DNA of 64,000 nt from Eledone cirrhosa (lineage: Eukaryota): the NCBI GenBank assembly GCA_964016885.1, contig OZ024743.1, forward strand, positions 199,392,001 to 199,456,000, written 5' to 3'. The notes under the pieces were generated by a model, which worked only from the letters and a program-made list of their open reading frames with translations, made no database searches and was not told the DNA's origin. Both the position numbers and the translations under genes were made by a program. Shown piece after piece: positions 6,446 through 42,553 of the stretch; position 1 is the stretch's first letter; each line of letters starts with the position of its first letter.

Positions 6446-6509
6446 TTTATATATATATATATATAAAGTTAAATAAAAGTCAAATGATTAAAATTTAGCT
6501 TTGTTTATT

Positions 6510-6564
6510 ACTGCTATATATATTTCAGTGACAGCCATCTTTGGTTGTGACCTCTTCAGGCAGT
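6510..6564 (-). ncRNA. Minimal type-I hammerhead ribozyme (family H1)
   Basis: Minus: actgc-CTGAAGA-GGTCACAACCA aaga TGGCTGTCACT-GAAA-TATATA-TA-gcagt; within element 6467-6678. Confidence 0.8.
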
Positions 6565-6675
6565 TTGAATTAGTATGGTATAGACAAGTACATATGTTGT
6601 TTAGGTGTATGATATTGTCAATACTCTGATATGCCCAGTTCCTTGTTGGGTTGTTAATTCACTGAGGAACTGGAG

Positions 6676-6745
<70 letters not shown>

Positions 6746-6842
6746 TTAGGGTTTCCTGATGCTTTCCTTTGAATGGAACAGTTCTAGTCCTGTAGAAGCC
6801 ATTTCTATATTAAATGTGTGATATATATATATATATATATAT

Positions 6843-6881
6843 AGTCACTGAGGAGGTCACAGAATGTGTGTTGAAAGAGTT

Positions 6882-6887
<6 letters not shown>
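6843..6887 (+). ncRNA. Degenerate solo hammerhead (Penelope-related family H2) between (TA)n tracts
   Basis: agtca-CTGAGGA-ggtcaca gaa tgtgtgtt-GAAA-gagtta; stems partly decayed. Confidence 0.55.
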
Positions 6888-6927
<40 letters not shown>

Positions 6928-7094
6928 TTTGAGTATATGTATTTTGAGTATATGTTGGTTGTATAGCAACACCTCAGTATGCAAATTGGAGCACTCGAGA
7001 AAGTGCGCAAGTTGGTTCGGTTATTCCGGAGTAATGTAAAATAAAATAAAATAAAATAAATAAGTCAAATGTTTAAAATTTGGCATCGTTTATT

Positions 7095-7149
7095 ACTGCT
7101 ATATATATTTCGGTTACAGCCATCTTTGGCTGAGACCTCTTCAGGCAGT
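7095..7149 (-). ncRNA. Minimal type-I hammerhead ribozyme (H1), left arm of foldback 7037-7440
   Basis: Minus: actgc-CTGAAGA-GGTCTCAGCCA aaga TGGCTGTAACC-GAAA-TATATA-TA-gcagt; perfect 5-bp stem I, intact core, palindromic stem III. Confidence 0.88.
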
Positions 7150-7330
7150 CCGAATTAGTGTGGTAGAGACGAGTACACATGCTGTTGAGGTGTTTAACTT
7201 TGTCAATACTCTGATATGATTCCAGTTCCTCAGTGAAATAACAACCCAACCAGGAACTGGGCATATCAGAGTATTGACAAAGTTAAACACCTCAACAACA
7301 TGTGTACTCGTCTCTACCACACTAATTCGG

Positions 7331-7385
7331 ACTGCCTGAAGAGGTCACAGCCAAAGATGGCTGTAACCGAAATATATATAACAGT
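7331..7385 (+). ncRNA. Minimal type-I hammerhead ribozyme (H1), right arm of foldback 7037-7440
   Basis: actgc-CTGAAGA-GGTCACAGCCA aaga TGGCTGTAACC-GAAA-TATATA-TA-acagt; first stem I pair mismatched. Confidence 0.85.
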
Positions 7386-7440
7386 AACAAACGAAGCCAA
7401 ATTTAAACATTTGACTTATTTATTTTATTTTATTTTATTT

Positions 7441-7470
<30 letters not shown>

Positions 7471-7471
<1 letters not shown>

Positions 7472-7652
7472 TCGAAGCCCTTTTGTCAAATATGCTGTGA
7501 CCTCCTCAGTGACTAGGTTTTTATTTTGGGTCTCTCCTTTGTTCTGTCCTACACCATCTTGTTTTTGTGTGTAGGACAGAACAAAGGAGAGACCCAAAAT
7601 AAAAACCTAGTCACTGAGGAGGTCACAGAATGTTTGACAAAAGAGCTTCGAC
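7471..7652. mobile_element. Short head-to-head foldback of Penelope-related 3' ends with two hammerhead-like motifs (7471-7513 -, 7610-7652 +)
   Basis: gtca-CTGAGGA-GGTCA...TGAC-AAAA-GAGCTT-cgac (GAAA mutated to AAAA); taggacagaacaaa shared with the Penelope 3' UTR at 13261; (TA)n on both sides. Confidence 0.75.
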
Positions 7653-7653
7653 A

Positions 7654-7684
<31 letters not shown>

Positions 7685-7701
7685 TACATATATATATCTA
7701 T

Positions 7702-10700
7702 ATATTGTTATACTTTGGGAGGGTCATGTTGCCAATAAGAAACACACGCACCAGTTGCTTTCACTTCAATTTATTATAATAAATTTATAAATTTAGGAAT
7801 TTATAAATTTCTGGTTGGTTGGTTGGTTCCACAACCAGATAGTTGTTTATATATTGTCAAAGTTCTTTCGTCACACATTCTGTGACCTCTTCAGTGACTG
7901 GGGATTCTTTTCTTTGTTTTTGTGTCTCTCCTTTGTTCTGTCCTATGCCATTTTATTTCTGTGTGGGTGTCGTGTGCTCAGTCTGCGCATGCGCCACATC
8001 CGGGTGTCTGTGTGTGTTTATATTTGTTTATTTATATGTTTATTTACATGTTACCGGTTGGTTGTTTGTTCTGTGTGTGTGTGTGTTTTCATTTTGTCCT
8101 TAATTGTAAGTTGTGATGTTGCTGTTCCACTCATATTTTCTATTTAATTTTGGTTGTAATTCTTTTATGTTTATTGCCTCTGTGATTTGTCTAAACATTG
8201 CATCTTTTCTGTGTGTAGATTCTATTTTTATTTCTATGTTCTCTAATTTACCCTTATGTTCTATTTTAGCATGTTGGTAGAGTACAGATGATTCTTTACT
8301 ATCTTGAAGGTCTCGCCAGTGTTCATTTATCCGTTCCCCTACACTATGAGCTGTCTCACCTATGTACACTATATTTTTGTCTCTACATTGTCCTTCAGTA
8401 CATCTTATGCTATACACTACATTTCTAGTTTTACAGTTAATATGGGGGCTTATTTTACAGGTTATACATTTCTTATCTATACAGGGGGTCTTTGGAAAGG
8501 GTATGTCTTGCTAATAAGTGTTTTTTACGGAGGTACCTGCTCTTTCTACTATCTTAATATTGAGTTTATGTTTATCTAGGGCCCTTCTAAATTTGTAAGC
8601 TAATTCACCTCTAGGGGTTGTATCGATGAACATTACACTCTGGTATTTATTGCTATCATACCATGAGTTTATTCTATTAGCCTTATTCCTAGTTCTTTCT
8701 ATTCTATTCCAAAATTTGCTCCTATACAAGGGGCAGGTCCCATTTGTGTCATTATTTACCATTTTTTCCCATTTGGTTCTGGCTCCTCTATACACTCTGA
8801 TTCTATCTCTCTGATTGTAACCAGATAACTGCATACGGTGGATGAAGTCTTGTATGTGTCTCTCTAGTTCTTCGGGGTTGCACATGCGGGACACGTTTCT
8901 CATCACCCATACCAAATCCGTAATCAGTATGTTGATTTTGGTATGTTCCGAAACAGCCGAGTTTCGGTGGATCAGATGTTTGGAAGTCATGGGTTTGGCA
9001 TAATGGGAATGGAGGATTTGTTTTTTGTTATTAATGGTATCTAACCAGAGCTCTGTGTCTAGTACAGGTAATCGATGGTTGGGGTGTTTACTTGGGTAGT
9101 CTATAGTAACTCTAATAGTCTGGTGGATGGAGTTAGCTATTTGCTGGATGCTTTCCATTGTGTTTTTCTCTAGTTCCTGACTGTTCTCTAGTGGGGGTGT
9201 CTTAACTACGATGTTTATATCGTCAACGTAGCGGGAGTACATTATCAGGGTTAAGGGGTCTTCTAATTGTTCTTTAAGTTTAAGTTTAAGTCTACTGTCC
9301 CACCATACCTTGAATAAGTTAGCTATGTCGCCTGCAATGCTAACACCAATGGCTGCTCCTTCCTCTTGGGCATATTATTTTCCATTAAATTTGAACATAT
9401 GTTCCTTAAGGGTTAGTTTTATGCTGGCCCCTACCACATGTGCAATCATTTTCTTCAGTTCATCGTGGTTTTCGGGTGTCCGTATGGCTCTGGTCCACCC
9501 GTTCCATCTATCTGTGTGGGTTTTCTTGGCCATTGAGGTAATGGTAGGTGGTCTGCCTCTTGCTGGTCTTGTAGGGCACAGGTTGCTAAGGTCATATGTG
9601 TCTAGGTAATTATTACTATAGGTAAGTTTAAGTAGGAGTCCCAGCTCACTGGTATCAATCCCACGGAACTCAACATTGCTCTCACTGATCATTTCTACGC
9701 ATTTCTCCACAGCAAAATCCACGTCAATAGATGGATACAAGGACACAACATCCATACTACCTATTATGCAGTTTGTTAGGTCCCTAGATCGGGTACTCTC
9801 GCCGATTTTGCTGAGGAGGTCCTCCGTGCTGTCACATACATCTGGGGACATTTCAATGATGGGGCGTATGATCAGGGAGAATGAAGTAGGACAGTCTGTA
9901 GTTACTAGCAATGTTAGCCCCACAGACTGGCCGTGCTGGTGGTCCCGTGACAGGGTCACTGCCCGTTTTATGGTCTTTTCGAAGCCCATACAACGCCGGC
10001 ACTTCATTGTTCCAGGCCTGGAAGTTGTTGGCAGTCCTTTTGTTGGGCTGCATTATATTCGTCCACATCACCATATGAGCATTGAGGGCTTTTTCTCTAT
10101 CCTCTTGCTCCTGTGGTGGTACCTCTCTTGTGTTAGTGATGTGGGGTTGCATTGCCTGGATGTAGTTTGGCTGGCTGTCAACCGACATTCTGCCAGACTT
10201 GTCTGTTGGAAAGCATGCTATCTCTCCATTACGCGAGCGCTGCATGAGCTTACGCAAGCCATTTGCAGATTTTTCTCCCAGTTGCTGGGCCTCTATTCTA
10301 TTATGCTTCTTGCTATACTGTTCTATAATATTTCTAAGTTCGGATTTAGCTATACTAAATTGTGCTTCTGTTTGTTCATCGACCTGCGACGGCAATTGCG
10401 TGTGTCTGTTAAATGGTAAAGTCGTGGCGTGGACTCGTCGCAGGTCGAACGACTTATCGGAGGGATTATAAAAAGTAGAGTTCCAGGCTGCTGCTTTATG
10501 TGTACTAGTGCTATTGTTATTGTTAGTTGTGTTGTTTCTATTTCTATTTCTATTTCTATTTCCACCAACAGCCTCATGGTTGTTTCTATGTCTCTCATAA
10601 TTACTCCTGTCTCTTTCCACTGGCTCATTGTTATTATCTACTCTATTTTGTGTGTCTGTGTGTTCGTCTTGGTTATTTTCTTTGTCCATAGTCTCCCTTC

Positions 10701-11396
10701 TCCTTTTAATCCTATTACTTTCCCTTATTTCTGTGATTTCTGTGCTACTGTCATTACTTGTTTTCTGTGTCTGTGTGTTTGTTAAGATTGTGGTGAGGTG
10801 AGAGGCATTGAATGTGTGTGTGTTGTTGTTGTTGATGTGTGCTGTTGTTGATGTGTGTTGTTGTTGTTCTCTCCGTGTGTGTTATTATTGTTGTGTGTGT
10901 TGTTATTGTTGTTTGGTGTCTGCGTGTCTGTTGTTGTTTCTGGGTATGTTATTATTGTTGGTGTGTGTGTGTTGTTGTTATTGTTGTTTGTGTCTGTGTG
11001 TCTGTTGTTGTTGGGATGTGTGTTGTATATGTGTGTGCGTATATTGTTACTTTTGTTTTTGTTTTTGTTTTTGAGGTTCCAACGTAATTTTGTAAATGAT
11101 TTTTCTATTTCTGACAGACAACTAATCATATTTACCTTCTTGAATGTCGCAAATTTCGGTGGTAGAAGTAATACAGATAACTCATCGTCATCTATTGCCG
11201 TGTTGCCGTATATATTTGTGTTGTTGTTGTTGTTGAACTCATCTGTTAATGAGGTATCGGCCATATTTATACCGTCAATTTTGTCGGGATATCTATTGGT
11301 ATTCTCTACAGTATCCTGATTTAGTTTTATCTGCTTAAGCCACTTTAGTTTCTTGTTAAAGTGCTTATCACATTCTTGAGCAATGCACTGTTCTTC
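7702..11396 (-). mobile_element. Penelope-like retroelement, left arm (5'-truncated, frameshifted RT + GIY-YIG endonuclease)
   Basis: ORF pieces 10782-11264, 9853-10689, 9375-10007, 8511-9242, 8100-8417; motifs FPTDKSG, LYGLRKDHK, RPV, SMDVVSLYPSI, YSRYVDD, LPVLD, VYSIRC...VYIGET. Confidence 0.93.
7856..7898 (-). ncRNA. Minimal hammerhead in the Penelope pLTR (left arm)
   Basis: Minus: gtca-CTGAAGA-G-GTCACA gaatg TGTGAC-GAAA-GAAC-TT-tgac. Confidence 0.8.
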
Positions 11397-13549
11397 AGCA
11401 GAATCGGCGAGAGTAACCGATCTAGGGACCTAACAAACTGCATAATAGGTAGTATGGATGTTGTGTCCCTGTATCCATCTATTGACGTGGATTTTGCTGT
11501 GGAGAAATGCGTAGAAATGATCAGTGAGAGCAATGTTGAGTTCCGTGGGATTGATACCAGTGAGCTGGTCTCCTACTTAAACTTACCTATAGTAATAATT
11601 ACCTAGACACATATGACCTTAGCAACCTGTGCCCTACAAGACCAGCAAGAGGCAGACCACCTACCATTACCTCAATGGCCAAGAAAACCCACACAGATAG
11701 ATGGAACGGGTGGACCAGAGCCATACGGACACCCGAAAACCACGATGAACTGAAGAAAATGATTGCACATGTGGTAGGGGCCAGCATAAAACTAACCCTT
11801 AAGGAACATATGTTCAAATTTAATGGAAAATAATATGCCCAAGAGGAAGGAGCAGCCATTGGTGTTAGCATTGCAGGCGACATAGCTAACTTATTCAAGG
11901 TATGGTGGGACAGTAGACTTAAACTTAAACTTAAAGAACAATTAGAAGACCCCTTAACCCTGATAATGTACTCCCGCTACGTTGACGATATAAACATCGT
12001 AGTTAAGACACCCCCACTAGAGAACAGTCAGGAACTAGAGAAAAACACAATGGAAAGCATCCAGCAAATAGCTAACTCCATCCACCAGACTATTAGAGTT
12101 ACTATAGACTACCCAAGTAAACACCCCAACCATCGATTACCTGTACTAGACACAGAGCTCTGGTTAGATACCATTAATAACAAAAAACAAATCCTCCATT
12201 CCCATTATGCCAAACCCATGACTTCCAAACATCTGATCCACCGAAACTCGGCTGTTTCGGAACATACCAAAATCAACATACTGATTACGGATTTGGTACG
12301 GGTGATGAGAAACGTGTCCCGCATGTGCAACCCCGAAGAACTAGAGAGACACATACAACACTTCATCCACCGTATGCAGTTATCTGGTTACAATCAGAGA
12401 GATAGAATCAGAGTGTATAGAGGAGCCAGAACCAAATGGGAAAAAATGGTAAATAATGACACAAATGGGACCTGCCCCTTGTATAGGAGCAAATTTTGGA
12501 ATAGAATAGAAAGAACTAGGAATAAGGCTAATAGAATAAACTCATGGTATGATAGCAATAAATACCAGAGTGTAATGTTCATCGATACAACCCCTAGAGG
12601 TGAATTAGCTTACAAATTTAGAAGGGCCCTAGATAAACATAAACTCAATATTAAGATAGTAGAAAGAGCAGGTACCTCCGTAAAAAACACTTATTAGCAA
12701 GACATACCCTTTCCAAAGACCCCCTGTATAGATAAGAAATGCATAACCTGTAAAATAAGCCCCCACATTAACTGTAAAACTAGAAATGTAGTGTATAGCA
12801 TAAGATGTACTGAAGGACAATGTAGAGACAAAAATATAGTGTACATAGGTGAGACAGCTCATAGTGTAGGGGAACGGATAAATGAACACTGGCGAGACCT
12901 TCAAGATAGTAAAGAATCATCTGTACTCTACCAACATGCTAAAATAGAACATAAGGGTAAATTAGAGAACATAGAAATAAAAATAGAATCTACACACAGA
13001 AAAGATGCAATGTTTAGACAAATCACAGAGGCAATAAACATAAAAGAATTACAACCAAAATTAAATAGAAAATATGAGTGGAACAGCAACATCACAACTT
13101 ACAATTAAGGACAAAATGAAAACACACACACACAGAACAAACAACCAACCGGTAACATATAAATAAACAAATAAATAAACAAATATAAACACATACAGAC
13201 ACCCGGATGTGGCGCATGCGCAGACTGAGCACACAACACACACACAGAAACAAAATGGCGTAGGACAGAACAAAAGAGAGGCACAGAAACAAAGAAAGGA
13301 ATCCCCAGTCACTGAAGAGGTCACAGAGTGTGTGACGAAAGAACTATGACTATATATAAACAACTATCTGGTTGTGGAACCAACCAACCAACCAGATTTA
13401 TAAATTTATAAATTTATTATAATAAATTGAAGTGAAAGCAACTGGTGCGTGTGTTTCTTATTGGCAACATGACCCTCCCAAAGTATAACAATATCGGTTT
13501 CAACACACGATTTCAGATAAAGAATCTTGCTAAACAAATTCAGAAACGA
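11396..13549 (+). mobile_element. Penelope-like retroelement, right arm (RT core + GIY-YIG + pLTR)
   Basis: ORF pieces 11361-11606, 11966-12697, 12791-13108 nearly identical to the left arm; Cys-rich linker PCIDKKCITC...NC before GIY-YIG (Neptune-like, inference). Confidence 0.93.
13307..13351 (+). ncRNA. Minimal hammerhead in the Penelope pLTR (right arm)
   Basis: agtca-CTGAAGA-G-GTCACA gagtg TGTGAC-GAAA-GAAC-TA-tgact; intact core and 5-bp stem I. Confidence 0.85.
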
Positions 13550-13861
13550 TATATATATATATATTGTCGAAGCTCTTTTGTCAAACATTCTGTATATATA
13601 TATATGTATATGTATATATACACACATAATATATAAACTTATGTATCACTTCTACATCCATAAAGTAAAAAAATATATATAAAGATATAGGTGAGGTCAT
13701 ATTGACTGAGTATATAAAAAAGAAACATTTTAAAACTTACAAAAATACCAACAAAATTTGTCCCAGTGCTTTTAATTTAATGATTTCGAATACGGAGTTA
13801 AGTATTGTAAATGAGTTTCTATTCGTTTTCATTATCAGGAATCTAATTAATACCGAGAATG

Positions 13862-20820: not shown

Positions 20821-22801
20821 ATGGAAATTTTCGACCTTGAAACGGTAAAAAACTTGCTGGTCAAAAGTTTAAAGGCAGCCACTGCAGATTTCACCACGAC
20901 TACGACGGCTACAGTCATGCCTGTCATCCACTCTACTGAATGTGAAGGCAAAACTAAAAAGCTACCATCACAATCTTCTGGCATAGCAGCAGTATCATCT
21001 GAAAACGACATCACCACCACCGCCACCACCACCACCACCACAACAACAACAACTCAGAGCAATAACGTCAAAAACACCGACAGCTTCATTGTAAACAAGG
21101 ATGGCGGTGGCAACAGCAAGAATGACAACAACAACAATAAGAGCATCAGAAACACCACATTTGCTGCAGCAGCAGCAGCAAAAACAAAGCGCTTATTGGA
21201 ATATCGATATTGATATTAGCGATAAAGACGAACAGTTAGCCAAAGCGTGGAGGCTAATTAAACGGGTGAAGTCCTGGGCAAACCTGACCATCCCGGATGA
21301 GGCAATAGCGGCCATGCAAAGGAGGACAGTGCTCTTTCGATGTATTTCGGTGCAGACACGAAAAGTGGAACTTGCGAGCCAAGCAGAGGTAGAGGCTGCA
21401 TTGGAGTACATCGGAAGTAACATAGAGTACAAAGCAAGAGGAAAACAGTTCGGTACCATCTCGGTACTGTTCAAATCCGAGGCCCTCGCTATTAAGCTCT
21501 CGGTGATCCCCTGCAGAACGGAACGCATTATCATGCATCCGTCCTATATGGGTAAAAGGACAGTGAAGGTACGCATTCCCAGCATCCCACCAGGAATTAA
21601 CATATGGTGGCTGCTGGGATGCGTAATCGAGGAGGGGACAGACACCACCCTCCTGGACATCAAAAGGACAGAGAGAGAAGACTGGTCCGGAATGGATTTG
21701 GAGATTCTTCTCCAAATGAAACCGGAGGATATAAATAACATCCCAGATTTTGCCCGCCTGCAGGACGGGACAACAATCCAACTAATGATTGACGGAAGAA
21801 GGCCACGCTGCTTCGTTTGCGGGGAAGCCACCCATCTTCAAGCCTTCTGCCCTCAGCGCAAAAATGCAGGGGGTCGCAAACCTCCTTTGTTGCCAATGCT
21901 AGTGTCAGCACGGAAAGCTGCACCACCACCACCACCAAAAACAACATCAACAAAAACACGGACACCAACATCAAAAGCAGCCGGATCACCACCAACACCA
22001 AAACCAATCCAAGGAGAAAACGAGGAAAGCTCTCCCACTCCCCCTACCCCCCCAACTATATACATAGACAAAAAAAAAATAAACGGACACACAGACACAG
22101 AGACACTCACAGACACAGACCCTTTGTCTTCCAGCAGCGAAGATGAAGGAAAACCCAAAAGTGCAAAAAAACAGAGAAAACTCACACAAAAAAAAAAGCC
22201 CCTACAAAACACAAAAACACACACAACAAAAAATACAGACACCACTAACGCAGACACTTCCCCAATAACATCAGCACCATCAGCAACATCGACACCACCT
22301 CCACAATCCCCGAAACACAAACAACCTAAACAAACACAAGTACAAATAAACACACAAATACCTGAAATTGCAGACACCACACCTACAACAAACATAGACA
22401 TACCCGAAACAACACCACCAAAACCATCGCCACCACCTTCACCAAAACGAAAACAAATAAAACCACACCAACAAAATGTTAAAAACTTCGTGCTTGTCAG
22501 AAGGGCCAACGATAAACTGATGGCCCTCTTAGCGCGAAGCGAGGACATTCAAACAGAGAGGGAGATTTTTGAAATGAGCACATTTTGCGTGCCAGAAGAT
22601 TTGCTTCTGGTCCGAATGTCACTCAATTCTTTCAAAGAAATTCGAGAGAGCTTTCCTCAAGACGTGGGAAACCCGAATGTGAAACCCACATCAAGACTTT
22701 TAAAGGGGTTCCCAAAAGAAACCCCACCAACCATGGAGGTCGAACCACCTGACCTTCACAAGACCCGGGAGGTAAGTAAACCTTCCCTCTCTCTCTCTTA
22801 G
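20821..22801 (+). pseudogene. Tx1 ORF1 (gag-like, CCHC knuckle), frameshift near 21200
   Basis: ORFs 20821-21213 and 21101-22801; CFVCGEATHLQAFC; Pro/Thr-rich tail; homologous to 44564-46729. Confidence 0.8.
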
Positions 22802-22810
22802 CTTACCAAT

Positions 22811-25800
22811 ATGGCCATATTAAGAGTAGGAAGTTTAAATGTTCGCGGCCTGGGGTCACCCTGGAAGCAGGGTCGCCTGCTCAACGACCTCCGGTCGCTG
22901 GAAATGGATGTGATTGCCGTAAGCGAGACCAGAATTTCCGACACGCGTGCACTAACCCCCATTTTCGACGACTATCAGATCTTTGCATCTGTTAGCAGGC
23001 CGGGAATGGGGGGTGGGGTGGCAGTGCTGTTTAGGAAAGGACTGGATCTCGAGGTAAGGTCGATCTTCCGGGACCCGGATGGTAAGTTGGTGGTCTTGGA
23101 TGTGAGCAGTAGCGAAGGTGGTGCCTTTAGACTGCTGGCCGCCTACGCCCCTACAGGGGCCGGACGACCTGACTTCTTTAGGCGCCTGGAGACCTTTCTG
23201 GGTACGTCTCGCCCTTTACTGTTAGCGGGGGACTGGAATGGCATCTTAGACGCACGCTGGGATTGTGTGGGAGTAGCCGATAGGAGCGGGGGGTGCAAAA
23301 GCCTCAAGCACCTACTCAGCCAGTTCCAACTGTCTGACAGGTATCGACTAGATTTCCCCAATGTGCCAGTATGGACATGGACCAACCGAATGGGGTCATC
23401 TAGATCGTATATAGACAGAATCTTCATTAGGAAAATAGATAGAAATAGTGTGGGCTGTCCACTTTTTAAAACGGTCGCCTATTCAGATCACAAATTTGTG
23501 ATCTGTACGGTCGACCTAAATAAAACGCGTAGGTTAGGACCGGGTTACTGGAAGCTGAACATGTCATTTCCGGCACGTAAGACTTACAGGGACCGAGTCA
23601 ATAAGTTAGTTAAGCAAAAGTTGACAGGGGGGATCATCAACAACAGATGGTGGGGGGCTCTCAAAAGAGAGATTAGAGTAACTTCGATAGAGTTCAGCAA
23701 AGAACTAGCGTTAGAGAAAAATAGAAAGGAGGGAGAGCTTGTAGATAAGTTAGATGAGGCTATTTGTAGTGGCATCGCAACTGACGTGCTAGCTGCGAGA
23801 ATGGCATTAGACCATTTCTTCAATGCCAAACACGAAGGTTGCATTGTCAGAGCTAAGGCGCGTGCGCTGAGAAACGAGGGAACTAAAGCTGTTCGATGGG
23901 CCCGCGTGGCGGAGGCGCAGCGTGGTAATAAAACCACAATTCGGTCTTTGGCGGACCGAGACGGACACGAGATAAGCGATTCCAAGCGGATGTGTGAGGC
24001 CTTTCGCCAGCACTTTGCTCGGTTGTTCGGGGAGAGTGGCGGGTCAGAGAGAGCAGCGGATTTCAGTCCCTACCTTGACGGCTTGCCGCGCATCTCGACG
24101 GTCGACGCTGAGCGCTGCGAAAGGCCGATTACTTCAGCCGAAATTCAGGACGCCCTTGTCGGCTGCATGAGGCGCAAGTCACCAGGCTTGGATGGCCTGC
24201 CCTACGAGCTTTACGTAAATATGCCAGACTTGTTCTCCGAACTCCTTGAAGCACTCTACTGTAACTGGCAGCAGAATGGGAGTATTCCCAGTTCTGTGAG
24301 CAGGGGAGTGGTGACGCTGATAAGGAAAGACGAGAACAAGAGGGATACATTAGACAACTTCAGGCCCATAACTCTGCTCAACACAGAGTTTAAGATTTTG
24401 GCCAAGGTGTTAGCAAAGAGATTGGCGCTTGTCGTCGAGGATTTGGTTGGGGAGGCGCAAACTTGCGCAATCCCAGCCAGGTCCATACACGACAATCTCC
24501 ACCTCATGCGATACATCATAGAGAGGGTAGGGTGTAAACCTGGCTTCGGTGGGGCACTGATCAATTTAGATCAATCGAAAGCATTCGATAGGGTCGACCA
24601 TCGGTATCTGGAGTTTGTCCTCAAAGCAGCTGGCTTCGGCCCTGTCTTTAGAAGCTGGATCGTTGCAATGCACAGCGGCACACGCTCGGTGGTCAAAGTT
24701 AATGGCCACCTCTCGATCGGCTCTCCCGATCGGTCCGTCAAGGGTGCCCTCTCTCTTCCCTTCTGTACGTATTGACTCTCGAGCCTTTACTGCGGAAGCT
24801 GGAGCTGTTGCAGGGCATCCCCCTCGAACCGGGACGTGGAAAGGCGATGTCGGCTTATGCGGACGACATCACCGTGATGGTGTCGAACACCTCAGAAATC
24901 GAGGTGGTCGGCACCTTATTGAAAGAATATGAAACGTTGACAGGAGCCAAACTTAATCCGGAAAAGTCGGTGGGCTTGCAGCTCGGAACCTTGAGAGGCA
25001 AGCCCATGCCGTCCAACAGCGTCGTGGGGCGCTGGACGGACGGACCAGTAAAGTTGCTCGGGGTTTGGTTCGGACCAGACCTCCAGGTGGAAAAGAATTG
25101 GGACGAGGTAACGAGCAGAGTAGCCAGTCTCACCCAAAAATGCGCTGGGAGGAAGCTATCACTGAAAGGTCGCGCGGAGGTGGCGAATGCGTACATCGCG
25201 TCCGTCATCTATTACCGCCTAACCGTCGTGCCTTGCCCCCGTCCGCGCCTCGTCAAGTTGGAACAGCTCCTCTTCAAATTCTTGTGGAGGGGACAAGTTC
25301 CGTTGGTGAGGCGGTCCATCTGCTGCCAGCACCCTCTACACAGAGGGCTGGGCATGCCGTGGCTAATGATGTGCAGACATGCGTTGAGGCTGCGACATCT
25401 CCAGATATTCTGCCTCAATGGTGAACAGGTGTGGTTGCCGTTTATCAGACGGGCCTTTCCGCAGCTCATTTCTTTGACTGAGCTGCAGTCCTGGGTCAAG
25501 AAGAGACCGAGACTGGGTGACTGGCACCTGGAATGTTGCCAGGCACTCACTGCCCTCTACCAAGCGGGCAATGCGATCAGTGGAACTTCCACTCTCGAGT
25601 TTTATAGAGGATTAGTGGTGGGCAAGTGCGATGACGCACTCGGAGAAGCTTTGGGCCTCGACGAAGTCGAACTGACCAGTCTGTACCGGAGGACTTTTGA
25701 GCCGGGGACGATGGACAATTTCCAGAAATCCCTCGCTTGGCAGTGCTACCGGGGGGCACTGCCGGTTCGGGATAAACTCTACAGGCACGGAAGTGCTGTC

Positions 25801-26226
25801 AGACGGACATGCCCAAGATGCGCACAGAACGACGAAACCGTTCTGCACGCACTTGTCCAATGATCGTGCATTACTGACTTGTGGAGTTATGTCGAACAGC
25901 TACTGTCGCGTGTGGAACGAATCCAGTTATCGGCCGAGTCCATAGTGAAGATCGAGCCGCCACCTTCCTTAGGTCAGGAAGAGCAGGACATTTTCCTCTG
26001 TCTGGTGGCAGTTGCGAAAGAGATTATATGGTGGACCAGGTTGAAAGGACTAAAGACAGACACTTTTCTCTTCGGCCAATCCCTCATCAACTTCTTCAAG
26101 TTTCACCTGGAAAGGAGGGTGAGGGTGGAGAGAGAAGTGCTGCCCCCCAGTACATTTGCTAAAAGGTGGATGAATGTGGCAAGAATGGCTCGTGTGAATG
26201 GGCCTACTCTGACCATGCGCCTATAG
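22811..26226 (+). pseudogene. Tx1 ORF2 (APE endonuclease, reverse transcriptase, C-terminal Cys/His motif); frameshift ~24720 and stop at 25861
   Basis: SLNVRGL, SET, GDWN, IDRIF, SDH; KSPGLDGL, FRPITLLN, DQSKAFDRV, AYADD; CPRC..DETVLHAL. Confidence 0.93.
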
Positions 26227-32009: not shown

Positions 32010-33003
32010 TGTAAGATGTATGGTAGGTCGTATGTGAATCGCGATGATCACGTCTGACCTACCAAATATGTGACGGTAGCTAGTTAAGCTCTATGCATAT
32101 ACGCAGAGCAGAAATATTAGTGAAAAAGAACAAAGGAACAATTATGACATCATAACAAGTTTATTGCCGACAGCCGTTTCGTCCGACCACATGGTGGGAC
32201 TTTTCAAGGCATACAACATGTGACTGTAAGATCATTATCTACATCAACGTATCACTCAAGGCTAGCAGTTTGAAATTGTGGTATACATCAGCAGTTCGGC
32301 TTGTATAGTTGGGGTCTATATTCTAAGGGGGCTCTTTTATATTAGCTGTCGGGGTCAGGGATTGAAGGTTAAAAATTAGATAATATATAATTTACGCGTT
32401 AACAGTAAACTAAAAGACTTGGGGTCCCATAGAAGCACCTTAAAAAATCCCTCAATAAGTGCATAAAGCTTACAGGCTCCAATAAACCTACTATACTAGA
32501 AGAAATTAAGAGGCTAATAAAATAAAAAATAAAAATATAAAGTTTCCCTAAATTTCTGACCTACCAAATATGTGACGGTAGCTAGTTAAGCTCTATGCGT
32601 ATACGCAGAGCAGTATTTATATTTTTATTTTTTATTTTATTAGCCTCTTAATTTCTTCTAGTTTAGTAGGTTTATTGGAGCCGGTAAGCTTTATGCACTT
32701 ATTGAGGGATTTTTTTAAGGTGCTTCTATGGGACCCCAAGTCTTTTAGTTTACTGTTAACGCGTAAATTATATATTATCTAATTTTTAACCTTCAATCCC
32801 TGACCCCGACAGCTAATATAAAAGAGCCCCCTTAGAATATAGACCCCAACTATACAAGCCGAACTGCTGATGTATACCACAATTTCAAACTGCTAGCCTT
32901 GAGTGATACGTTGATGTAGATAATGATCTTACAGTCACATGTTGTATGCCTTGAAAAGTCCCACCATGTGGTCGGACGAAAACGGCTGTCGGCAATAAAC
33001 TTG

Positions 33004-33004
<1 letters not shown>
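32010..33004. mobile_element. Non-coding head-to-head foldback element (arms 32153-32540 / 32615-33004) with hammerhead-like motifs (32165-32211 -, 32947-32994 +)
   Basis: Near-perfect ~390-bp inverted repeat; tgcc-TTGAAAA-GTCC...GGAC-GAAA-CGGCTG-TC-ggca (first core segment mutated); (TA)n flanks. Confidence 0.8.
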
Positions 33005-33072
<68 letters not shown>

Positions 33073-33089
33073 ATGATATATAACCACAC

Positions 33090-34893
33090 GTGCAGTAGCA
33101 TCATTGTCAACTGTGCTACAAAGGTAAAGGCGATGCACTAGATAGAGGAAACTATAGAGGTATAAAGTTGATGGACCAGGTTATGAAAGTAACAGAAAGA
33201 GTTATAGCACAGTTGATTAGGGACCGGGTGAAAATAGACGAGATGCAATTTGGGTTTGTACCAGGAAGAGGCACCACTGATGCCTTCTTCCTTGTGAGGC
33301 AGTTACAGGAAAAGTACCTAGCTAAAAGTAAGCCACTCTACTTGGCATTTGTCGACCTTGAGAAAGCCTTTGACAGAGTTCCACGTGCTGTAATCTGGTG
33401 GGCTCTTAGAAAACTAGGAGTAGATGAATGGCTTGTGAAAGCGGTACAACCCATGTATAGGAGAGCAGTCAGCAAAGTTAGGATTAGCAATGAGTATAGC
33501 GAGGAATTTAGCATACAGGTTGGGGTCCACCAGGGCTCTGTTCTTAGCCCCCTCCTGTTCATCATAGTCCTGCAGGCAATAACGGAGGAGTTTAAGACCG
33601 GATGCCCATGGGAACTCCTGTATGCTGATGACCTCGCACTCATAGCTGAATCTATGGTAGAACTAGAGAATAAATTCCAAACTTGGAAGCAGGGACTAGA
33701 AAGAAAGGGTCTCAAAGTCAACATGACAAAGACTAAGGTCCTTGTAAGTAGACGAGAAAACAGAACCCAGATCCCCTCAGGGAAATGGCCTTGCTCAGTA
33801 TGTAGGAAAGGTGTAGGTAGGAACTCCATTCTCTGCCCCAAATGCAAACAATGGGTACACAAGAGATGTAGCGGGATCTCAGGAAGCTCAATTAAAAATG
33901 TAGGCTTCACATGCAGCAAACAGCCACAGGAAACAAGTACCACCAATCTCTAGGCGGGCTCTGTAGAAACAGTAGACAGCTTCTGCTACCCAGGTGACTG
34001 AATTAGCAGTGGAGGTGGGTGTTCAGAAAGTACAATAACTAGGGTATAAACGGGATGGAAGAAGTTTAGGGAACTACTAACACTGCTAGCTGCAAAAGGC
34101 TTCTCCCTCAGAATGAAAGGCAGACTGTATGATGCGCGTATCCGAACAGCAATGTTACATGGTAGTGAGACCTGGGCGTGAGACCATGGTAGTGAGACCA
34201 TGGTAGTGAGACCTGGGCGCTGAAGGTGGAAGACACGTAGATTAGAGAGAAACGAAGCCTGCATGCTCTGATGGATGTGTAACAGTAATATACGTGAACG
34301 ACAAAGCATAAATGAATTGAGAGAGAGACTGAGCATAAGAGGAATCAAATGCTGTGTGCAGGAGAGGCGGTTGCGCTGGTATGGACATGTGATGCGTATG
34401 AAGGATGACAGCTGCATAAAAAGGTGCAGAGCACTAGAAGTCGATGGAAACCGCGGAGTGGGGAGACCCAAGATGACCTGGGATGAGGTGATAAAAGCCG
34501 ACCTTACCCAATTAGATCTTTCAAAGGCGATGACATATGACCATGACCTCTGGCGTCACACAGTAATACAGAGTACCCGACCTCCCATGGGTACAAGCTG
34601 AAGCATATAGACAATATGCCCCCACACCCCCCACCGCAAGGTGGTCGTGGAGGTGCTACGGCAAAAAAGCACCCAGCCCACACTGTAAAGTTGACGTGTA
34701 GGCGCCACGAAAAGCACCCAGCACTCACTGTAAATGAGGTTGGTGTTAGGAAGGGCATCCAGCTGTAGAAATCAAGCCAAATCAGTTCCTGTATGAGCAA
34801 GGCATGGTCAGCCGACCAGACATTGTCCACAACAGGACAACCCGTCTAACCCATGCTAGCGTGGAAGAACGGACGTAAAACGGTGATGATGAT
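33090..34893 (+). mobile_element. 5'-truncated decayed RTE-clade LINE (family R1)
   Basis: ORF 33168-33953 with DLEKAFD, GVHQGSVLSP, LYADD; stops and indels downstream; very similar to 39210-41010; (GAT)n tail. Confidence 0.93.
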
Positions 34894-36799: not shown

Positions 36800-37517
36800 G
36801 CCAATAAATGGAACAAGATGTGTTGTAACAAGATTGCATGAGAACTTGATTGAAGCAACCATTATATTCGGGGCTTACAAAGATCAAGCTCTTCTCATTC
36901 CGAGGATTCAACTTATACCAAGCGATAGCGAGTTGCCTTTTACATTTAAGAGGCTGCAGTTCCCAGTGAGGCCATGTTTTGCCATGAACATCAATAAGAG
37001 TCAAGGTCAAACTTTTAAAACTATTGGTATAGATCTGACAAACCCATGTTTCAGTCATGGCATGTTTTATGTGGCTGTTTCAAGGACGGGAACTTCAAAA
37101 GATCTCTAGATTTTAGCCAATCAAGAAATGTTGTTTACCCTGAAGTTCTTCATTAGGACAAATTATGGAATATATTTTCATGTATTTATTATGTTGAAAA
37201 ATAAATATTTAAACTTTGAATTTCTAATTTGAAAATAATGTTTTACACAAAAATAAAATTATCAAGTTTTGAATTGATATTTTGAATAAAATTATTTACA
37301 AGAAACAAAATAAGAATAAGATTTAATAATGTAATTTTGATATTACATTTGATATTGTTTGATATTATTTTCCTATTTTTGATGCATTACATTTTACATT
37401 GAGTAATATTGAAATGCAGAGTTTTTCTCCATAAAATATATCACTGATTTAAAATCAATCATCATTTTCTTTTTAAAAAAATGTGTGAAATGCAGCAAGG
37501 TGCGGGTAATTCGGCTA

Positions 37518-37518
<1 letters not shown>
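36800..37518 (+). mobile_element. Helitron 3' fragment (PIF1-like helicase C-terminus and CTAG terminus)
   Basis: NGTRCVV...PRIQLIPS..LPFTFKRLQFPVRPCFAMNINKSQGQT...CFSHGMFYVAVSR; ends gcagcaaggtgcgggtaattcggCTAG|T. Confidence 0.88.
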
Positions 37519-37565
<47 letters not shown>

Positions 37566-38002
37566 TAGCCGAATTACCCGCACCTTGCTGCATTTCACAC
37601 ATTTTTTTGTTGGATGAAGAAGTACCAAAAGTTCTCAGTGAAAGGAAGCTATAGTATAAGGTAATTGAGGAGAATCTGAGCTGAAAGGATGAGAGCTGAT
37701 CTCCAAAATGAGTACAGAAGCTCTGCTGGAAAAGACATGTCTGAACCATGTAAGCATCGAAAATATATATATATATATATATATATATAATGTAATTACA
37801 GAATCTTACTCAATGTTATTCTTATATAATGTAATTACAGAATCTTACTCAATGTTATTCTTATATATATATATATATATTTTTTTTTTTTAGTATATGT
37901 TGGTTGTTTACCTGCACCTCAGTATGCAGATTGGAGCACTCGACGAAGTATTTTATATATATATACGTGTGTATACGTATATATATATATACATGTGTAT
38001 AC

Positions 38003-38037
<35 letters not shown>

Positions 38038-39161
38038 CCTTTTATGTCCATTTTTCGATGCTTACATGGTTCAGACATGTCTTTTCCAGCAGAGCTTCTG
38101 TACTCATTTTGGAGATCAGCTCTCATCCTTTCAGCTCAGATTCTCCTCAATTACCTTATACTATAGCTTCCTTTCACTGAGAACTTTTGGTACTTCTTCA
38201 TCCAACAATCACCATCCATTATACATCACATGTCTGTACCAATGCTGTCTTCTCTCTTGCACACAAAATCTGAGAAAACATATCCACTGATGACTATTAT
38301 TTAAAACTAAAAGTTCCGAATGCAATAACATGTTTTAATTTTATATACATATTGTTTGAGTTTCTGATCTTTTAAAATGATAGTGTTGCAATGCTTTCAA
38401 CTACTATGAAATTCAATTTACATATCCTAATTTTGTTTTTAGTTTAGAAAGTCATAGCAATGAACGTGTTGTTGTTTTTTATCCTTGTCATCAAAGGTCT
38501 TCACACCAGCAACCACTTTGCATAGTATACTGGCTGCATTTTATTGTAGCACCAGCACTAGGAAGTTTGTTGGCCACATAAGTGACTGACGAGCTTTCTC
38601 TATCTTATGAAGGGGTGGGTGAAAAAGTATGGGGATGTAATCCTATCCACTAAAATTTCTCTGCATCAAATGTCCATACAATAACAGTCTTCTCTCTTGC
38701 ACACTACACCAGATTCCTGTTGTACATATTTTTTTCTCTCAGCTCTTTTGTGTTATGTATTTCATGCACACTAACATTACACATACATCAGAACATATTG
38801 CTTCATTCTTAGTAGAGTGCACAGGTCCTCTGTAGTCATGGTCTACAGCTCACTGACATGTAGCATTACTGTGCACATACCAGCATCATACTATCTGCTC
38901 TTCAAGCTGAGATATATTCTTCTTGTATATACACACATTCAAACACAGGTGTGCATACACACAAACACGCACGCATGTATATACACACACAAATATACAT
39001 TTATACATATACATATTTGACTTTATATGCATGCATTTGTGTGTGTATATATGTGTATATATGTGCAATGCATAAAATCTATTTGCACATATGTGTATGC
39101 ACAAACCTATATATATATATAAGTATACATATATATTCATATGTATATATATATTTATATG

Positions 39162-39212: not shown

Positions 39213-42200
39213 TCATCATCATCATCATCACCGTTTTACGTCCGTTCTTCCACGCTAGCATGGGTTAGACGGGTTGTCCTGTTGTGGGCAGTGTCTGGTC
39301 GGCTGACCATGCCTTGCTCATACAGGAACTGATCTGGCTTGATTTCTACAGCTGGATGCCCTTCCTAACACCAACCTCATTTACAGTGAGTGCTGGGTGC
39401 TTTTTCGTGGCGCCTACACGTCCACTTTACAGTGTGGGCTGGGTGCTTTTTTTGCCGTGGCACCTCCACGACCACCTTGCGGTGGGGGGGGGGGGGGCAT
39501 ATTGTTTATATGCTTCAGCATGTACCCATGGGAGGTCGGGTACCCTGTATTACTGCGTGACGCCAGAAGTCACGGTCGTGTGTCATTGACTTTGGGAGGT
39601 GTAGTTGGGTAAGGTCGGCTTTTATCACCTCATCCCAAGTCATCTTGGGTCTCCCCACTCCGCGGTTTCCATCAACTTCTAGTGCTCTGCACCTTTTTAT
39701 GCAGCTGTCATCCTTCATACGCATCACATGTCCATACCAGCGTAACCGCCTCTCCTGCACGCAGCATTTGATTCCTCTTATGCTCAGTCTCTCTCTCAAT
39801 TCATTTATGCTTTGTCGTTCACGTATATTACTGTTACACATCCATCGGAGCATGCAGGCTTCGTTTCTCTCTAATCTACGTAAGTCTTCCACCTTCAGCG
39901 CCCAGGTCTCACTACCATGCAACATCGCTGTTCGGATACACGCATCATACAGTCTGCCTTTCATTCTGAGGGAGAAGCCTTTTGCAGCTAGCAGTGGTAG
40001 TAGTTCCCTAAACTTCTTCCATCCCGTTCTTACCCTAGTTATTGTACTTTCTGAGCACCCACCTCCGTTGCTAATTCGGTCACCTAGGTAGCAGAAGCTG
40101 TCTACTGTTTCTACAGGGCCCTCCCAGAGATTGGTGGTACTTGTTTCCTGTGGCTGTTTGCTTGCTGTTTCAGCACAGCTGCTGCATGTGAATCCTACAT
40201 TCTTAATTAAGCTTCCTGAGATCCCGCTACATCTCTTGTGTACCCATTGTTTGCATTTGGGGCAAAGAATGGAGTTCCTACCTACACCTTTCCTACATAC
40301 TGAGCAAGGCCATTTCCCTGAGGGGATCTGGGTTCTGTTTTCTCGTCTACTTATAAGGACCTTAGTCTTTGTCATGTTGACTTTGAGGCCCTTTCTCTCT
40401 AGTCCCTGCTTCCAGGTTTGGAATTTATTCTCTAGTTCTACCATAGATTCAGCTATGAGTGCGAGGTCATCAGCATACAGGAGTTCCCATGGGCATCCGG
40501 TCTTAAACTCCTCCGTTATTGCCTGCAGGACTATGATGAACAGGAGAGGGCTAAGAACAGAGCCCTGGTGGACCCCAACCTGTACGCTAAATTCCTCGCT
40601 ATACTCATTGCCAATCCTAACTTTGCTGACTGCTCCCCTATACATGGCTTGTACCGCTTTCACAAGCCATTCATCTACTCCTAGTTTTCTAAGAGCCCAC
40701 CAGATTACTGCACGTGGAACTCTGTCAAAGGCTTTCTCAAGGTCGACAAATGCCAAGTAGAGTGGCTTACTTTTAGCTAGGTACTTTTCCTGTAATTGCC
40801 TCACAAGGAAGAGCGCATCAGTGGTGCCTTTCCCTGGAACAAACCCAAATTGCATCTCGTCTATATTCACCCGGTCCCTAATCAGCTGTGCTATAACTCT
40901 TTCTGTTACTTTCATGACCTGGTCCATCAACTTTATACCTCTATAGTTTCCTCTATCTAGTGCATCGCCTTTACCTTTGTAGCAGTTGACAATGATGCTA
41001 CTGCACCAATCTTTTGGTATGGCCCCCTCTAGTATTACCTGGTTAACGATACGTGTGGTTATAGTGTGACCTACAGACCCAGATGCCTTCAGCATCTCGG
41101 CAGCTATACCCGATGGACCGGTTGCCTTCCCTATCTTCATATCTCTGATTGCCTTACTTACTACGCTGCCGCTGACTTGTACTGCTGGTCCCTCTATAGG
41201 GTCTACGTGGGGTAGGGTCTCTTCTTCCCATGCATTCTCCTCATTTAGTAATCTATCATAATGACTCTTCCATGCATCTTTCTTCTCAGCACTTGTGAGG
41301 GCAAGCTCACCTTTATCATTCCGGATACACTTCTCTCCAATGACATCACAACTATCTCTGACACACTGCCTCGCAATCTTGAATACCTCCTGTTTCTGGT
41401 CCTCACGTTGTAAAACATGCTTGAATTTTCTATCCTCTGCTTCCCTCCTAGCTAAGTATACTTGTCGCCTAGCTTCCCTCTTGGTCTCTATGTAATGTAC
41501 CCTGCTCCCCCCGTTCTTCCATTCTTTCCATGCCTGTCTCTTGGCCTTGACTGCTTCATCTACCTTATTGTTCCACCACCAAGTCACTCTCCTCCTGCTT
41601 GAGGTCTTACTCCAGCCACAAACCTCATCCGTCGCCTCTAGTAAGTTATTTTTTAGGAACTCCCAGTTCTCTTCTACGTTAAATGTCTCTATCTGTTCTT
41701 CTTTACTGTCGTAGGCGTTGAGTAAAATATCTTTAAATCTGTTACTGGTTGAGGGGACTTTCAGCTTCCAGATCTTTCTTCTCCAGGTTGGCCTCTGTTT
41801 CAGGGCTCGCCTAGTTCTGACCGTGAGGTCGCTGACAACTAAGCTATGTTGGGATGTACATTCCTCACTAGGGAAGGCTTTTGTGTTTACGACCGTCCAT
41901 CTGTCACGTCCTCTGATGAGGATAAAATCTAACTGACTAGAGTGCTCCCCTGATCTATAGGTGATCAGGTGGTTGTCGGGTTTTTTAAAGTTTGTGTTAC
42001 ATATCGACATGTCATTGGCGTCGCAGAATTCTAGAAGTCTGAATCCTTCCTCATTCCTTGTGCCAACTCCATGGCCTCCATGTACTCTATTGAAGCCGTC
42101 GCAGTGTTTACCTACGTGTCCGTTAAAATCTCCTGCAATGATTAGGAAGTCCTTGTCGTCTGTTAGAGCAGTAGTGTGTATTAGGGACTCGTAAAACCTA

Positions 42201-42553
42201 TCCTTAAGTTCGTCTGGCAGCCCCGATTGGGGTGCGTAAGCTGATATTATTGTGGTAATTGTCTTATTCAGGACTAGTCTGAGTTTAATGATTCTTGCAT
42301 TTACCCTGTACACTGAGATTACTTTATCTACCCACTTGTCAGCTAATAGTATACCTACACCACCCATCCCATCGTCATTTCCCACCCAGAAAAATTTGTA
42401 GCACTGGCTTTTTCCTACAAGGACTCTAGCAGACCCTCCTCTCCATCTAGTCTCTTGCACACAGCATACATCAACTTCCTTTCGCTCTAGCATTTCTACG
42501 ATTTCTCCTGCTCTTCCTTTCATTGAGCCTACATTGATGGTACCAACTCGGAG
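39210..42553 (-). mobile_element. RTE-clade LINE (family R1) with uninterrupted ORF
   Basis: Single APE-RT ORF, ~300-bp 3' UTR, (GAT)n tail, (TA)n both sides. Confidence 0.96.
39515..42523 (-). CDS. RTE polyprotein: APE endonuclease + reverse transcriptase + PHD-type zinc finger (1002 aa; frame open ~10 codons further upstream, [10 protein letters not shown])
   Basis: VQETRW, SAYAPQ, GDFNGHVG, LDFIL; NYRGIKL, FVDLEKAFD, GVHQGSVLSP, LYADD, FCYLG; RRLRWYGHVMR. Confidence 0.93.
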   Translation of the reverse strand: MKGRAGEIVEMLERKEVDVCCVQETRWRGGSARVLVGKSQCYKFFWVGNDDGMGGVGILLADKWVDKVISVYRVNARIIKLRLVLNKTITTIISAYAPQSGLPDELKDRFYESLIHTTALTDDKDFLIIAGDFNGHVGKHCDGFNRVHGGHGVGTRNEEGFRLLEFCDANDMSICNTNFKKPDNHLITYRSGEHSSQLDFILIRGRDRWTVVNTKAFPSEECTSQHSLVVSDLTVRTRRALKQRPTWRRKIWKLKVPSTSNRFKDILLNAYDSKEEQIETFNVEENWEFLKNNLLEATDEVCGWSKTSSRRRVTWWWNNKVDEAVKAKRQAWKEWKNGGSRVHYIETKREARRQVYLARREAEDRKFKHVLQREDQKQEVFKIARQCVRDSCDVIGEKCIRNDKGELALTSAEKKDAWKSHYDRLLNEENAWEEETLPHVDPIEGPAVQVSGSVVSKAIRDMKIGKATGPSGIAAEMLKASGSVGHTITTRIVNQVILEGAIPKDWCSSIIVNCYKGKGDALDRGNYRGIKLMDQVMKVTERVIAQLIRDRVNIDEMQFGFVPGKGTTDALFLVRQLQEKYLAKSKPLYLAFVDLEKAFDRVPRAVIWWALRKLGVDEWLVKAVQAMYRGAVSKVRIGNEYSEEFSVQVGVHQGSVLSPLLFIIVLQAITEEFKTGCPWELLYADDLALIAESMVELENKFQTWKQGLERKGLKVNMTKTKVLISRRENRTQIPSGKWPCSVCRKGVGRNSILCPKCKQWVHKRCSGISGSLIKNVGFTCSSCAETASKQPQETSTTNLWEGPVETVDSFCYLGDRISNGGGCSESTITRVRTGWKKFRELLPLLAAKGFSLRMKGRLYDACIRTAMLHGSETWALKVEDLRRLERNEACMLRWMCNSNIRERQSINELRERLSIRGIKCCVQERRLRWYGHVMRMKDDSCIKRCRALEVDGNRGVGRPKMTWDEVIKADLTQLHLPKSMTHDRDFWRHAVIQGTRPPMGTC

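Follow-up and report, generated by a model that had tools for sequence, protein, structure and literature searches.

Within the window (the whole 64,000-nt stretch of DNA analysed), a (TA)n tract is almost certainly the target of a canonical, endonuclease-bearing Penelope-like element (PLE) insertion, in which two head-to-head, 5'-truncated copies meet at a 6-nt microhomology joint, one arm stopping at the tail-less start site of the family and the other at its tail site (Table 1). The 1.76-kb ORF bodies of both arms descend from one already dead molecule, and the outer pLTR parts have separate histories, diverging by 7% versus 0.4% in the body. The best explanation, in which we place middling confidence, is that the ORF body of this insertion was copied from arm to arm at the DNA level.

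Table 1. Features of the inverted PLE pair and its flanks (positions in the window).
Feature	Position	Strand	Evidence
Left flank: interrupted 47-nt (TA) tract and a small palindrome belonging to a related pLTR family	7441..7701	.	alignment
Left-arm end, tail-less, in (TA)n	7702	-	alignment
Left arm, shared part: RT-EN body, 3' UTR/pLTR, ORF-start stub	7702..9817	-	alignment, translation, homologues
Spacer: left-only 5' continuation of the element, N/T-rich low-complexity linker	9818..11394	-	tblastn, public reads
Junction microhomology TCAGCA	11395..11400	.	6/6 with left-arm 9814-9809; 8/9 over 11392-11400
Right arm: 5'-truncated inside RT, through EN and pLTR to the tail-less end point	11402..13494	+	alignment
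Shared in-frame TAA; two adjacent letters unlike nearly all family reads	11831..11833 (left copy 9375-9377)	+	translation, public reads
Shared +1 A (12682), resulting TAG (12695-97), probable compensating -1 near 12722	12682..12724	+	reads, frame scores
Divergent pLTR island: 14 substitutions in 13159-13351, 10 nt absent from right arm at 13396-13401	13159..13401 (left ~8047-7796)	+	alignment
Hammerhead-like core CTGA-N-GA / 6-bp stem / GAAA	13312..13340 (left copy from 7894, -)	+	motif scan, fold
ATG-started open frame, 26 codons; last 54 nt (13495-13548) = tail, right arm only	13469..13548	+	translation, public reads
(TA) tract plus 30 nt, matching left flank 7669-7625 exactly in inverted orientation	13549..13593	+	45/45

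The inverted arms align over 9817..7702 (-) on the left and 11392..13494 (+) on the right; tail included, the right arm as a whole spans approximately 11395 to 13548 (+), and its ORF ends at 13108. The left arm was predicted to carry ~1.6 kb of extra 5' sequence and the right arm to reach further 3', and both points hold: 9818-11391 occurs in the left arm only and is element sequence according to tblastn and family read depth, and alignment leaves 54 nt to the right arm only. An inverted, 5'-truncated copy lies at the 5' end, as in endonuclease-bearing (EN+) PLEs. No direct 3' UTR copy, i.e. no direct upstream pLTR (partial tandem), precedes the ORF, an expected variant since both arms are 5'-truncated. 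Non-nested arms with a one-sided tail correspond to the already described normal form of PLE insertions, as the inverted 5'-truncated copy, the one-sided 30-40-bp tail and the (TA)n bias are reported in the sections of PMC8557442 and PMC3846280 drawn on here.

The body encodes a PLE-type reverse transcriptase with a YVDD motif and 120 protein homologues at E<=0.001, the best being a PLE-like predicted protein of Octopus vulgaris (P0002; 66% identity over 87% of the element protein P0001), which represents another family or species; the host of the window is probably an octopod. P0001 itself gives no Pfam match at E<=0.01; RVT_1 lies below the cut-off in P0002 (E 0.004), and both RVT_1 and GIY-YIG lie above it in the distant homologue P0117. 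The region 8103-8510 matches PF01541 with 21.8 bits (E 2.3e-4), slightly under the cut-off of 22.6, and, at the C terminus, a GIY-YIG endonuclease of the CCHH type is recognisable from a pair of Cys located between the two halves of its core and from His residues further on. The RT-EN linker carries the CX2-5CxxC motif of Neptune/Nematis as C463-X4-C468-X2-C471, nearly invariant in 14 sequences. Going by motifs, the element resembles the Neptune/Nematis-type C-terminal EN+ PLEs, as presented in the parts of Craig et al. (2021, PMC8557442) used here, in RT followed by GIY-YIG, the CX4CxxC linker, a DK-x-G motif, the inverted 5'-truncated copy at the 5' end, the one-sided tail and the (TA)n target, but its tail is 54 nt long versus 30-40 and the direct upstream pLTR is missing. 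In comparison with the Adineta vaga Penelope families (Arkhipova et al., 2013, PMC3846280, in part), it shares head-to-head inverted structures, an optional tail on one pLTR, microhomology junctions, dead copies and N-rich coding inserts, whereas its inverted arm is 2.1 kb long with most of the ORF, and its N-rich stretch precedes the RT core.

Family alleles were read from four public runs (X1, X2, X4 and X20) out of 22 listed, which hold at most 61% of the words of the stretch, have zero depth in the right flank and do not reveal siblings within this genome. Of 527 letter rows, the comparison covers 40, all falling outside the pLTR island; for indels it covers 12 rows out of 42, and for loose ends 24 out of 3402. 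Family read depth is present in every bin of the spacer; by tblastn, all four homologues tested match 11396-11079 and/or 10485-9844, and the strand-switch joint from 9818 to 11395 occurs in 8 X1 contigs. The spacer has a frameshift at ~9881 and still falls ~130 codons short of the N-terminus of the homologues.

The extra 3' segment could have proved foreign to the family, yet it belongs to it: the tail is carried by X4 contig 24 (13417-13564) and by 2513 X20 molecules, which end at 13540. The tail as captured host DNA is rejected on the same family reads. They cover an optional tail that continues the ORF start in an open 26-codon frame, although its likeness to the N-terminus of homologues is weak (one of four tested, P0125, E 0.29, 29 of 2000 shuffles as good). 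Among the loose ends listed, the left end (equivalent to 13494) recurs as an end running into TA in 161 X2 and 2 X4 contigs. Both 3' ends therefore recur in other copies, compatible with two separate priming sites. The proposal that both enter (TA)n via an AT microhomology is borne out for the left end (ATAT) and, the next bases of the family falling outside the rows listed, stays a proposal for the right end. In the consulted part of Frangieh et al. (2024, PMC11167929), a tail is what lies between two sites within the ORF start at which the RT begins. The Poseidon PAc element of Anolis treated there likewise ends 3' at two recurring points within the ORF start, the tail lying between them, and has an AT-rich target and a hammerhead-like motif in the pLTR. 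It differs in that priming is reported to show no homology to the cut DNA, versus the 4-nt ATAT overlap with the target at our left end, and in that its hammerhead-like motif spans the ATG, versus ~130 nt before it here. This candidate core has, in both arms, one extra base before the 6-bp stem and no Rfam hammerhead match at E<=1; Rfam gave 31 matches at E<=1 in all, none at the gathering score, mostly miRNA models on hairpins.

Both arms carry the same premature stop, as originally predicted, together with the same TAG (8513-11 in the left arm). Family reads mostly lack both lesions (TAA and +1 A). Letters other than the TAA allele account for 139055/139063 of the depth in X1 and for 849/872 and 385/400 reads in X20; non-family letters at 11831 reach at most 23/872 and 15/400 (X20), 8/139063 depth (X1) and 0/116699 (X2), in runs where the locus itself is not shown to be present. 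The TAA is private to this pair, with next to no siblings in the public runs examined. As it is common to both arms yet almost never found in family reads, the ORF bodies come from one dead molecule. The +1 A is left out by the family in 644/816 X20 reads, 105698/212131 of X1 depth and 116.8/116.8 of X4 depth. It seems to be cancelled ~40 nt downstream, since the +1 frame scores better against 13 homologues (20.5 vs 12.2) and a loose end lies at 12722 in 4 X1 contigs (among the loose ends listed). The presumed frameshift before the endonuclease is thus the same TAG in both arms with no net shift: the frame past the TAG equals that before it and is colinear with homologues. Programmed read-through or a variant code is rejected likewise, given that family reads differ at the TAA letters and use the other frame at the TAG. 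Private changes per arm were also foreseen, and alignment confirms a complex lesion at 11568-69 in the right arm, where the absent base is carried by 12831/13039 of X1 depth; a CpG-type change at 12299 is a plausible private mutation.

The divergence between the arms is uneven, a feature absent from the original prediction. Apart from 11394 and 11401, set aside from the 23 aligned substitutions as junction bases of the spacer, the arms differ at 7/1757 positions in 11402-13158, 14/193 in 13159-13351 and 0/143 in 13352-13494 (ORF vs UTR, Fisher p=1.4e-6; none of 20000 shuffles reaches 14 substitutions in 200 nt). The 7% of the island is about twice the 1.8-3.5% separating this copy from the four X4 contigs that resemble it most (records 17, 18, 21 and 22), the contigs compared being 148-528 nt long and in ORF/spacer, and the other four listed differing by 1.2, 7.3, 8.1 and 9.5%. 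The substitution-free 143 nt among 14 UTR substitutions has p of about 0.02, or 0.15 counting indels. Polarised with the neighbouring mini-element, the right arm has more derived island changes than the left (6:3, p=0.51; at most 8:2, p=0.11), which leans towards a patch from a third copy in the left arm. An origin of the island by A-to-I editing is not supported (of its 14 changes, 5 have A in the left and G in the right arm, 3 the reverse). The inverted identity of the arms also continues for 45 nt beyond the element, into the flanks, another feature the original prediction did not contain; the (TA) tract is 47 nt long and interrupted on the left versus 15 nt on the right. At 4.4% divergence, the chance that the 30-nt flank copy would show no difference is about 0.26, and the copy could stem from a TA palindrome that was already there or from a short insertion of its own.

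Under the favoured explanation, the ORF body would have been copied as DNA from one arm into the other after the lesions arose, either by fold-back synthesis from the junction microhomology with re-annealing in the pLTR of the other arm, or by a long conversion tract between the arms; the two 3' ends would stem from ordinary PLE priming at two sites. The contrast between body and island, the inverted flank identity, the other (TA)n inverted duplications and the few TAA siblings count for it; the 0/143 terminal substitutions, the more derived island of the right arm, the limited public runs and the other possible origins of the flank copy count against it. A conversion tract of 1.7 kb is long, and a second short homogenising event may be required for the terminal stretch. 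Such copying would need no defective master RNA, and would explain the 7% island and the inverted flank at least as well as RNA mobilised in trans; a single RNA read twice predicts neither. The claim that no copying from one arm into the other was possible holds for whole arms only; the 1.76-kb body could have been copied. Of the proposed two cDNAs from one defective source, the recurring 3' ends and the one defective origin marked by the private TAA stand, and the RNA acting in trans is the part not borne out.

Mobilisation in trans, once amended, is nonetheless a close rival, somewhat less probable. A dead copy would have been transcribed, a helper RT would have primed two cDNAs on it, at the tail site and at the tail-less site, from either side of a (TA)n break; these would have been joined at the microhomology, and ~240 nt of the left pLTR would have been patched with the sequence of a further family copy, through a template switch or through ectopic conversion at a later time. 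Both 3' ends recur within the family, the 0/143 terminal and 0/30 flank differences suit one young event, the island of the right arm is somewhat more derived and is missing family-type bases at 13396-13401, and donors abound, pLTR depth being at least 2.6 times that of the neighbouring ORF bins. A PLE protein that cleaves and extends both strands in vitro, with a predicted dimer (PMC11167929), and trans action of PLEs (PMC3846280; bioRxiv 10.64898/2026.07.22.740005) are reported in the portions of these sources used here. Yet, this model needs two extra events, one each for the island and the inverted flank, and shows no evident sibling with the TAA lesion in the public runs, in which the locus is not shown to be present. 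More speculatively, and with little probability in our estimate, the locus might record the second-strand step of PLE integration: one cDNA would fold back at the microhomology, be copied as DNA and be captured by a second short cDNA primed across the break on a different family RNA, the (TA)n fold-back also duplicating the flank as an 'inverted target duplication'. Steps after first-strand synthesis are left unvalidated in the consulted part of PMC11167929. If this were true, young head-to-head PLE pairs genome-wide should have identical bodies and pLTRs of different sub-families.

Still less probable is a whole-arm fold-back, in which a left copy, dead and with its tail, would have been duplicated as DNA up to and beyond its 3' end, so that the TA tract and 30 nt of flank were included, with the left 3' part later overwritten by a tail-less family copy. 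Its two events would account for the lesions common to both arms and the 45/45 flank as well as for the island, the lack of a tail on the left and the TA tract that is longer and interrupted there, and two further, similar perfect inverted duplications lie beside (TA)n in the window (37476-37608 and 37607-38208); but a foreign donor should differ in 13402-13494 too, where there are no substitutions, and head-to-head PLE pairs normally arise at integration. That a chimeric fold-back read or polishing created or homogenised the second arm is very improbable: no contig among those listed from the public runs spans the stretch, no raw reads of this genome lie behind the analysis, and PLE structures of this sort are described as difficult to assemble (PMC8557442, in part), but the arms end at two different recurring family points, are 7% apart in the island and carry plausible private mutations, and multi-copy polishing would presumably draw towards family letters, not a private stop.

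Taken singly, this locus represents a dead copy from a high-copy family, in an already described arrangement, and cannot alone decide between the two-cDNA, fold-back and later-conversion models, which mosaic arms (identical body, different pLTRs, one tail) counted genome-wide would separate. Pattern scans for related DNA gave no match in metagenome or viral contigs and one in genome contigs, a chance 19-mer; a related-locus search of metagenome contigs gave 54 pattern matches, none confirmed. Titles and abstract beginnings in the literature, with subscription papers and supplements outside this scope, held nothing on shared lesions or conversion between PLE arms. The small palindrome in the left flank is 76-81% like the main pLTR, and its own arms differ at 5/114 positions.

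When its two stops are translated as X, the left (-) arm reads as one 589-aa frame. That frame encodes the YVDD motif of an RT, a linker of the form CX4CxxC and a GIY-YIG domain (E 2.3e-4, slightly below the Pfam cut-off). At E<=0.001 it matches 120 homologues, of which the best is a 66% match from Octopus vulgaris, for which an excerpt of PMC13282606 reports recently active Penelope-like families. By the linker criterion in excerpts of PMC8557442, the element is a C-terminal-endonuclease Penelope-like element (PLE) of putative Neptune/Nematis type; its host is probably an octopod. It is a new dead member with an already known arrangement.

Reverse-complementing the left region and aligning it to the right pairs 9817..7702 (-) with 11392..13494 (+), and leaves 54 bases (13495-13548) on the right only. 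The extra 5' sequence that the original prediction gave the left arm is indeed element: four long homologues match 9818-11391 on the - strand (tblastn), every bin there has public-read depth, and in eight contigs of run X1, 9818 continues at 11395 on the other strand, so other copies pass directly from this spacer to the RT. Even the left copy is ~130 N-terminal codons short, thus both arms are 5'-truncated. The junction shows 6 nt of microhomology (11395-11400 = 9814-9809). Within the spacer, ~200 low-complexity N/T-rich codons (10474-11078, -; N 21-30%) have family-read coverage and face 16-59 aa in three long homologues; N-rich inserts in the Penelope ORFs of Adineta are similar, but the codons here precede the RT core.

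Both arm ends are standard PLE end points. At 13494, equal to the left end at 7702, 161 X2 and two X4 contigs leave into TA. The right extension is family sequence, as the original prediction required, since an X4 contig runs from 13417 to 13564 and 13540 is the end point of 2513 X20 molecules. It is the optional PLE tail described in excerpts of PMC8557442 and PMC3846280 and given as a 34-bp repeat in part of PMC2377424; part of PMC11167929 accounts for it as the sequence lying between two sites where the RT starts. It prolongs an ATG frame opened at 13469 (26 codons), which is weakly like the N-terminus of one of four homologues tested, P0125 (29/2000 shuffles). As such tails are known and the window has three further small head-to-head palindromes, the non-nested layout is ordinary.

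The body (11402-13158) has one dead origin. As predicted, both arms carry the same premature stop, TAA at 11831/9377, and also TAG at 12695/8513. Family reads nearly always have other letters at 11831-32 (139055/139063 of summed X1 depth, all of X2, 849/872 and 385/400 X20 reads), so that the TAA is private, though common to both arms. Near-fixed differences from the family at 11772, 12262, 12287 and 12382 are absent from the left/right difference list and hence shared. The predicted common frameshift before the endonuclease exists, as an A at 12682 that is missing in 644/816 X20 reads, in the whole X4 depth and in roughly half the depth of X1 and X2, but is cancelled: the +1 frame beats the original against homologues across 11 codons (20.5 vs 12.2; TYPF motif), after which the original frame resumes, and a compensating change probably sits near 12722.

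The original prediction overlooked uneven arm divergence and inverted flank identity. With two junction bases excluded, the 21 substitutions divide as 7/1757 nt in the body, 14/193 nt in a pLTR island (13159-13351) and 0/143 nt in 13352-13494, where the right arm also lacks 10 nt at 13396-13401; none of 20000 shuffles, run on all 23 substitutions, placed 14 within 200 nt. One RNA copied twice predicts even divergence, so the island has a different history, and part of the pLTR has separate origins in the two arms. Beyond the right TA tract, 30 nt repeat the left flank exactly in inverted orientation (45/45 counting TA). The window has comparable perfect inverted duplications at 37476-37608 and 37607-38208, so the flank copy may be an independent trait of (TA)n here.

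We favour, at roughly even confidence, doubling of the body by DNA-level copying from one arm to the other. The 7% divergence of the island is about twice the distance between this copy and four X4 contigs (1.8-3.5%; the other four listed lie at 1.2, 7.3, 8.1 and 9.5%), inverted identity continues beyond the element end, and the TAA stop has no evident sibling in the runs. Against such copying, the last 143 nt show no substitution (p about 0.02; 0.15 with indels counted), the right island is slightly, not significantly, more derived (6:3), and the runs, which share at most 61% of window words and have zero depth in the right flank, may not include this locus. Two cDNAs mobilised in trans, as originally proposed, would need an added third-copy patch for the island and seem a somewhat weaker candidate; whole-arm fold-back with a later overwrite is improbable, and an artefact very improbable. 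Among the papers listed, judged by title and abstract opening and leaving aside subscription papers and supplements, none dealt with lesions shared by the arms of a PLE or with conversion between them. The mosaic pattern merits a genome-wide count.

Short PLE-like pieces cluster in TA tracts at 6448-7682. At 37476-37608, perfect 45-bp inverted arms, a single-copy pair within the window, directly flank (TA)n. The neighbouring 156-bp perfect inverted duplication at 37607-38208, absent elsewhere in the window, encloses a tandem duplication of 39 nt, several TA tracts and a 61-nt piece with 87% similarity to 6950-7004, and is possibly an inverted target duplication. A likely further PLE pLTR pair at 32152-33007 has 390-bp inverted arms (2 substitutions, 74-nt spacer), (TA)n at its right end only and, by eye, a hammerhead-like motif close to the ends. 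A LINE-like set (33114-34893, 39221-42553, 53989-56615) comprises an ORF, an inverted partial copy ~95-97% identical and a diverged relative.

Further repeat features of the window
Feature	Position	Strand	Remarks
Third PLE-like copy	6448-6681		
PLE-like stub	6842-6888		47 nt
Palindrome	7034-7445		7 substitutions in 194
Palindrome	7441-7682		5 substitutions in 114
Two long two-ORF LINE-like elements	21095-25863 and 44507-50205		stops and frameshifts interrupt both
LINE-like endonuclease-RT ORF	39515-42553	-	1012 aa
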